Below are positions 4,789 through 5,095 of a DNA stretch of 5,095 nucleotides, piece by piece. A program made the position numbers and the translations under genes. The notes beneath the pieces were generated by a model. The model was not told the DNA's origin. It did not search any database and saw only the letters and a program-made list of their open reading frames with translations. Source of the DNA: a virus. Its lineage: Duplodnaviria > Heunggongvirae > Uroviricota > Caudoviricetes. The stretch lies in the IMG/VR virus record IMGVR_UViG_2698536369_000016; one strand, written 5' to 3'. Every line of letters begins with the position of its first letter. The first letter of the stretch is position 1.

Positions 4789-4980
4789 CTACTCTCCCCG
4801 CGCCACCTTACGCTTATCTTCTTTAATCTTGAAATAAAGGTTAGTCAGATACGTCAGCAGGCCAAACAGCAGACTCCCCAGCACACCGATTGCCACCCAC
4901 TGGGACGGAGAGACTTTGTCCAGCAGCTGCAGTAACCAGTATCCCGTCCCCACCGCTGACGTGGTGTATGACACACCCGT
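4789..4980 (-). pseudogene. S: class II pinholin S (phage 21 S21-like), 5'-truncated by the IS
   Basis: Translation ...[63 protein letters not shown] matches S21-type pinholins from about residue 5 onward. The frame runs directly into the IS terminus at 4981 with no in-frame ATG; the six-frame call begins at a GTG (4974-4972). Confidence 0.8.
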
Positions 4981-5095
4981 TGAACCGCCCCGGGAATCCT
5001 GGAGACTAAACTCCCTGAGAAAGAGGTAAACAGAATGACTAAAAATACTCGTTTTTCCCCCGAAGTCCGTCAGAGGGCGATTCGTATGGTTCTGG
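4981..5095 (+). mobile_element. IS3-family insertion sequence (IS629/IS1203-like), left terminus and start of orfA; element continues beyond the window
   Basis: TGAACCGCCCCGGGAATCC... terminus at 4981; AGAGG then ATG at 5035; exact inverted copy of 1-115. Confidence 0.8.
5035..5095 (+). CDS. IS3-family transposase OrfA, N-terminal 20 codons (partial)
   Basis: [20 protein letters not shown], with an AGAGG Shine-Dalgarno 8 nt upstream. Confidence 0.75.

Follow-up and report, generated by a model that had tools for sequence, protein, structure and literature searches.

Junctions of an IS629/IS1203-type element with the pinholin and terminase genes of a lambdoid prophage: probable prophage decay rather than a new lysis arrangement

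Background

Does an IS element that interrupts a pinholin gene next to an intact SAR endolysin gene create a new kind of lysis arrangement, or does it mark one more step in the decay of a prophage? The question is raised by a stretch of phage DNA of 5,095 nt, referred to here as the window, which is the whole of the draft contig CYBM01000078.1 from the short-read assembly GCA_001284545.1. At one end of the window, the holin gene S runs without its start codon into the terminus of an IS element. A preliminary description, made from the letters of the window, considered the pinholin to be decapitated by the IS and proposed an unusual lysis state.

IS insertion in a prophage belongs to a class of event that already dominates the biology of IS629 and matters little in itself; in O157:H7, 62% of the IS629 copies are located in prophages (PMC3271280). 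The reading favored here, with a probability of roughly 0.8, is that the insertions in S and in the terminase gene represent ordinary IS-driven prophage decay and not a new lysis arrangement.

Organization of the window

The window contains a late region encoded on the minus strand (S, R, Rz/Rz1, perC, cos, Nu1 and a truncated terminase gene A') between two IS ends. The features are as follows.

1..115, minus strand: IS left end, second copy, repeating 4981-5095 perfectly in inverted orientation over 115 nt; runs off the contig
116..796, minus strand: terminase large subunit gene, first 227 of 642 codons (PF05876, partial ATPase domain; 1,929 nt in an intact relative)
768..1277, minus strand: terminase small subunit gene Nu1, intact, with the cos region upstream (PF07471; annotation of relatives)
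1680-1904, plus strand: YlcI/YnfO (DUF3950) gene, between Rz and cos
1986-2300, minus strand: PerC-family regulator gene, between Rz and cos
2765..3232, minus strand: Rz, i-spanin, intact (PF03245, 8.4e-49)
3012..2827, minus strand: Rz1, o-spanin, intact, embedded in Rz (PF06085, 1.7e-21)
3240-3353, minus strand: 37-aa ORF between R and Rz (phrog_4493, unknown function; hypothetical protein in relatives)
3568..4101, minus strand: R, SAR-type endolysin (GH24 lysozyme), intact (PF00959, 5.7e-23)
4261..4533, plus strand: conserved 90-aa gene of unknown function between S and R (hypothetical protein in relatives; phrog_1853, 2.2e-43)
4980..4789, minus strand: P21-S-type pinholin remnant, codons 6-68 plus stop (194 nt identical to intact 68-codon alleles; PF04971; phrog_9876 and phrog_20, both holin)
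4974-4972, minus strand: GTG, first potential start in the holin frame (native Val8; 61-residue product; the start chosen by the gene caller in the public assembly)
4981..5095, plus strand: IS left end (IS3 family, IS629/IS1203-type; 100% identical over 115 nt to full copies); runs off the contig

Roughly 200 complete E. coli genomes contain positions 116-4982 (4.87 kb) in one piece, with identities of up to 99.9%. The gene order in these unbroken relatives is Q, tRNAs, esterase, S, R, Rz, Nu1, A and portal.

As far as can be judged from the sequence, the label of a pinholin plus a SAR endolysin for S and R is sound. The catalytic triad of GH24 enzymes, E35-X8-D44-X5-T50, can be read from the R sequence, and the N-terminus carries the Ala/Gly-rich, weakly hydrophobic segment of a SAR domain (YGLSAAVLALIGAGASAP, approximately residues 7-24, hydropathy 1.3-1.9). 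From residue 9 onward, R aligns with the full-length structure of the P21 SAR endolysin (3HDE), and it is 94% identical to the R protein of 933W, which is listed as a SAR endolysin by the Young laboratory (PMC9239132). The endolysin gene is thus intact and of the SAR type, as first described.

Two further observations concern the neighboring genes. The 90-aa gene at 4261-4533, for which no Pfam match was found, points toward the IS; in O157:H7, the same slot is occupied by a ydfR-family gene on the strand of S and R. The perC and YlcI/YnfO genes between Rz and cos are typical cargo of EHEC/EPEC lambdoid prophages.

The holin gene and its junction with the IS element

The boundary between the holin gene and the IS lies at 4980/4981, where it was first placed, with an ambiguity of 2 nt: the IS terminates in TG, read as CA on the strand of the holin, and codon 5 of the holin gene ends in the same two bases. 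On the holin side, positions 4789-4982 are 100% identical (194 nt) to intact holin alleles (e.g. L001 7675-7868). On the IS side, positions 4981-5095 match the left end of full-length IS3-family copies (1,310 bp; e.g. L007 2501-2615) at 100% identity. Since both halves match known sequences at this level, the junction is, on sequence grounds, not a chance pattern.

The terminal inverted repeat of the element starts with TGAACCGCCCCGGG at 4981 (5'-TG) and the full copy ends in ...CCCGGGGCGGTTCA (CA-3'), as is characteristic of the IS3 family. Full copies whose first 115 nt are identical to the window are present in many E. coli chromosomes and plasmids (e.g. L007 2501-3810) and are annotated with orfA and orfB joined by a programmed -1 frameshift. 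The orfA start codon, an ATG at 5035, corresponds to the CDS start at 2555 in L007. The first 20 codons of orfA are all of the transposase that the window contains, and this part is weakly matched by NF033516. The IS end in the window is 97.4% identical to a copy annotated as IS1203, and a full copy of this variant (e.g. L007) is 94.7-95.3% identical to the IS1203 elements named in RefSeq. A scan of both strands for promoter-like sites, either outward or antisense, yielded none in positions 4000-5095 of the window or in the full IS copy.

The holin gene of intact relatives comprises 68 codons (ATG GAA AAA ATC ACA ACG GGT GTG..., protein MEKITTGVSYTT..., starting MEKITTGVSY...). The intact allele matches PF04971 (bacteriophage P21 holin S) at 1.9e-32, with 111.5 bits against a cut-off of 26 over positions 1-63 of the 64-position profile. 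Its identity to S proteins from Stx phages, 933W among them, is 92-98%. Mean Kyte-Doolittle values over 15 residues amount to 0.4-0.8 for TMD1 and 1.4-2.25 for TMD2. TMD1 is weakly hydrophobic and rich in Gly/Ser/Thr/Ala, TMD2 is strongly hydrophobic, and a short basic C-terminus follows, which is the layout of a two-TMD class II holin. The earlier classification of the gene as a P21-S-type class II holin is supported.

In the window, the IS end has replaced codons 1-5 (MEKIT, 13-15 nt), the ribosome-binding site and everything upstream, and a complete translatable holin gene is no longer present. The term decapitated is appropriate for the loss of the start codon, but it overstates the damage to the protein. 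Compared with intact holin genes, the N-terminus encoded within 4789-4980 is indeed incomplete, yet the difference amounts to only five codons, and both TMD1 and TMD2 are complete.

The IS was also assumed to have displaced a dual-start region that sets the ratio of holin to antiholin. This does not apply to the present lineage, which reads ATA CAT CAG ATG (L001 7882-7893) where 933W has ATG TAC CAG ATG (MYQM; L008 5831-5842), so that only one start exists and that of the antiholin is lacking. The whole lineage shares this difference, which the annotations do not mention. The lineage of the window appears to have lost the antiholin start, or never to have had it. The late promoter, too, was described as displaced to the far side of the IS. 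It is not adjacent to S: in the relatives as well as in 933W, Q and pR' are located approximately 5 kb upstream.

The terminase gene and the second IS copy

The second IS end interrupts the terminase large subunit gene after codon 227, where the terminal TGA of the IS (115..113) provides a stop codon. Because the IS cuts this gene, the prophage is defective and cannot package DNA.

Both ends of the contig stop 115 nt inside the IS, and the two ends (1-115 and 4981-5095) form a perfect inverted repeat. Overhangs of equal length are probably the trace that a graph assembler leaves when a unique segment meets a collapsed repeat. As the contig ends inside the IS on both sides, the sequence beyond either copy cannot be read from it; for a short-read contig of this kind, claims about the far side, such as a promoter across the IS, need long reads. 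If simple insertions are assumed, the right end of the IS next to the holin (...CCCGGGGCGGTTCA) would be followed by a 3-bp duplication (CGT expected) and TGTGATTTTTTCCATCTGATGTATGTCTCC, leading into the nanS-p esterase gene. It would thereby join the holin 5' end (...TGTGATTTTTTCCATCTGATG), and the other copy would join the rest of the terminase gene.

The inverted IS copies could instead mark an IS-mediated event in which the 4.87-kb segment S'-R-Rz-cos-Nu1-A' was inverted or prophage DNA next to it was deleted. In that event, neither the holin 5' end nor the late promoter would lie across the IS from the remnant, and the lysis genes may have lost their link to late transcription altogether. 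Such a history is consistent with the presence of the same IS end, inverted and exactly 115 nt long, at both contig ends; an inversion of the segment by homologous recombination between the two copies would not alter the junctions that short reads can reveal, and IS629-mediated deletions and rearrangements have been described in O157 (PMC3271280). Nothing in the contig demands a rearrangement, however, and both breaks are sharp, within a region that is otherwise colinear and 99.9% identical; two independent insertions would leave the same pattern. A rearrangement is regarded as rather unlikely, though it deserves consideration.

The two inverted copies bracket a lysis-cos-terminase segment of 4,865 bp, a layout that is formally invertible and resembles a composite transposon. 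A mobile composite transposon consisting of the IS-bounded segment was considered and rejected, as searches of plasmids and phages returned only the normal prophage context or partial matches.

Reading frame and potential start of translation

According to the preliminary description, the holin frame continues into the IS for at least 20 codons without an ATG or a stop. This is borne out: on the minus strand, the frame runs through the junction for 38 IS-derived codons, without a stop or a Met codon, to the end of the contig. When the remnant is spliced onto a full IS copy, the frame remains open for 45 codons, and these include no ATG, GTG or TTG. An IS-holin fusion protein was rejected, as the 45 IS codons offer no in-frame start.

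The GTG at 4974, previously suggested as a possible start, is indeed the first one available, given the lack of start codons in the IS part; a second potential in-frame start is the GTG at 4953-4951 (Val15). A G-run contributed by the IS (GGGGCGG, 4991..4985) is located 10 nt upstream of GTG 4974. For this G-run, pairing with the anti-Shine-Dalgarno sequence is calculated at -7.2 kcal/mol, compared with -6.6 kcal/mol for the native site. Some translation from this GTG may occur, given pairing close to that of the native site, but at a spacing of 10 nt. Folding of the mRNA across the junction gives a z-score of 0.23, with no sign of a special structure. In an exact look-up, the 61-aa product was found only in this contig, in a frameshifted allele (see below) and in a 355-nt contig that is cut at this point. 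Taken from the sequence, the most likely state of the holin allele is null or weakly expressed.

A different reading regards the remnant as a working pinholin with altered timing. Initiated at GTG 4974, with the G-run as a substitute for the Shine-Dalgarno sequence, it would comprise 61 residues without MEKITTG and would keep TMD1 and TMD2. With the Lys3 anchor gone, TMD1 would exit the membrane more readily, and each molecule would trigger earlier. The GTG is in frame, lies 10 nt downstream of the G-run and is the start selected by the gene caller. When S21-68 was truncated systematically from the N-terminus, variants without Lys3 retained pore formation, even at an accelerated pace, as long as the YWFLQW patch was present (bioRxiv 10.1101/2021.04.20.440580). 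The allele of the window aligns colinearly with S21-68 and shares its K3 (the landmarks of the P21 sequence are corroborated by the same study). The pores of these truncated variants were, however, less stable (bioRxiv 10.1101/2021.04.20.440580). A low output is also to be expected from a GTG start that is widely spaced from the G-run and has no promoter-like site in its vicinity. Pinholins trigger only at a critical concentration. A functional, retimed pinholin thus appears improbable. If the remnant were expressed, it would represent a natural N-terminal truncation of a pinholin, of modest interest for the study of lysis timing.

A more far-reaching scenario would have the IS end build a new start by accident, giving rise to an early-triggering 61-residue pinholin without its Lys anchor, and/or the inverted IS pair render the 4.87-kb segment invertible, so that the lysis genes are switched on and off relative to the late promoter. 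This is considered very unlikely.

Occurrence of the junctions

A search of 5,426 complete E. coli genomes returned neither the IS-holin nor the IS-terminase junction. The best genome matches with nominally full coverage consist of two pieces, with an IS located 264 bp away on the holin side or further off. An exact 36-mer spanning the junction has no match in the GTDB species representatives. The junction is known from one short-read assembly; it is a private mutation, and its kind is very familiar.

That the junction is an assembly artefact, i.e. a chimeric contig end or a mis-joined repeat with an intact holin in the real genome, is hardly credible: the window does come from short reads and stops in a collapsed repeat, and its junction is missing from the complete E. 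coli genomes and GTDB representatives, but the break falls exactly at the terminal TG of the IS at both ends, graph assemblers enter a repeat from a unique contig only via k-mers that are present in reads, and the same contig is on record for two samples.

Consequences for lysis

Under the favored reading of ordinary prophage decay, an IS629/IS1203-type element would have inserted between codons 5 and 6 of S in a lambdoid, Stx-phage-like prophage, thereby removing the only start codon of S and its ribosome-binding site. The IS part of the open frame lacks a start, and no IS-holin fusion protein would be made. The remnant would be translatable only from the GTG of Val8, behind a poorly spaced G-run derived from the IS. 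The expected outcome is a holin-null or strongly under-expressed allele.

Q-modified polymerase resists terminators in lambdoid phages. R and the spanins would be produced provided that a Q-modified late transcript can still pass through the IS. A late transcript that reaches R and Rz/Rz1 would then be expected to result in slow, unsynchronised lysis, as is the case for SAR endolysins that act without a holin. SAR endolysins are released spontaneously in the absence of a holin, although later and less sharply (PMC9239132).

The same IS cuts the terminase gene 4.9 kb away, and the proposed sequence of events would end in a defective prophage in which a lethal gene happens to be disarmed. Selection against the disabling of a lethal gene is not expected. 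The proposal of an unusual lysis state, which rested on the dependence of SAR endolysins on the pinholin, is weakened by the known holin-independent release (PMC9239132), and it loses most of its force with a lysis cassette that resides in a defective, decaying prophage.

Comparison with known systems

The closest model system is phage 21. The intact holin of the relatives has 68 residues and aligns with the phage 21 pinholin S21-68 (antiholin S21-71) without gaps, at approximately 74% identity (50/68; landmarks of the P21 sequence checked against bioRxiv 10.1101/2021.04.20.440580). Both have a TMD1 of low and a TMD2 of high hydrophobicity followed by a charged C-terminus, and in both a SAR endolysin and Rz/Rz1 are encoded downstream of S. 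In contrast to phage 21, the lineage of the window has a single start without an antiholin start, an opposite-strand 90-aa gene lies between S and R, and the S gene of the window carries an IS end in place of its start codon and codons 2-5.

Phage 933W is closer in sequence, with a holin that is 92.6% identical and an endolysin that is 94% identical. It shares the order Q, tRNAs, nanS-p esterase, S, R, Rz with the relatives of the window. Differences are the MYQM dual start of its own S gene and the direct adjacency of S and R in 933W, whereas the prophage type of the window carries a lambda-like Nu1/A terminase and perC. No stx gene was seen in the Q-S interval of the relatives.

A second disrupted copy of the same holin allele was observed in a Logan contig (ERR2235284_36774; L005 1-700). 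A 1-nt deletion in an A6 run at codons 2-3 (atggaaaaatcac) again leaves the GTG of Val8 as the only start. The cause differs from that in the window, as the allele combines the deletion with an IS1 end approximately 140 bp upstream. The deletion is either an independent inactivation of the same holin allele or a homopolymer sequencing error. Lethal lysis genes count among the earliest losses when a prophage decays, and the same holin allele was apparently knocked out independently in this second sample.

The O157:H7 prophages provide a close parallel to the insertion itself. In 292 complete genomes, mostly of O157:H7, an IS1203 is located 264 bp upstream of this holin type (e.g. L009 3635-5209), between nanS-p and S. 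It belongs to the same IS group as the element in the window and has the same orientation, with its left end facing S, its transposase gene divergent and its body in the path of the late transcript. Late transcription must therefore cross an IS in these prophages as well. In these genomes, however, the IS leaves S intact, whereas in the window it lies inside S at codon 5/6 and represents a variant that is approximately 95% identical to IS1203. The region upstream of S may thus be a recurrent target of IS629-group elements.
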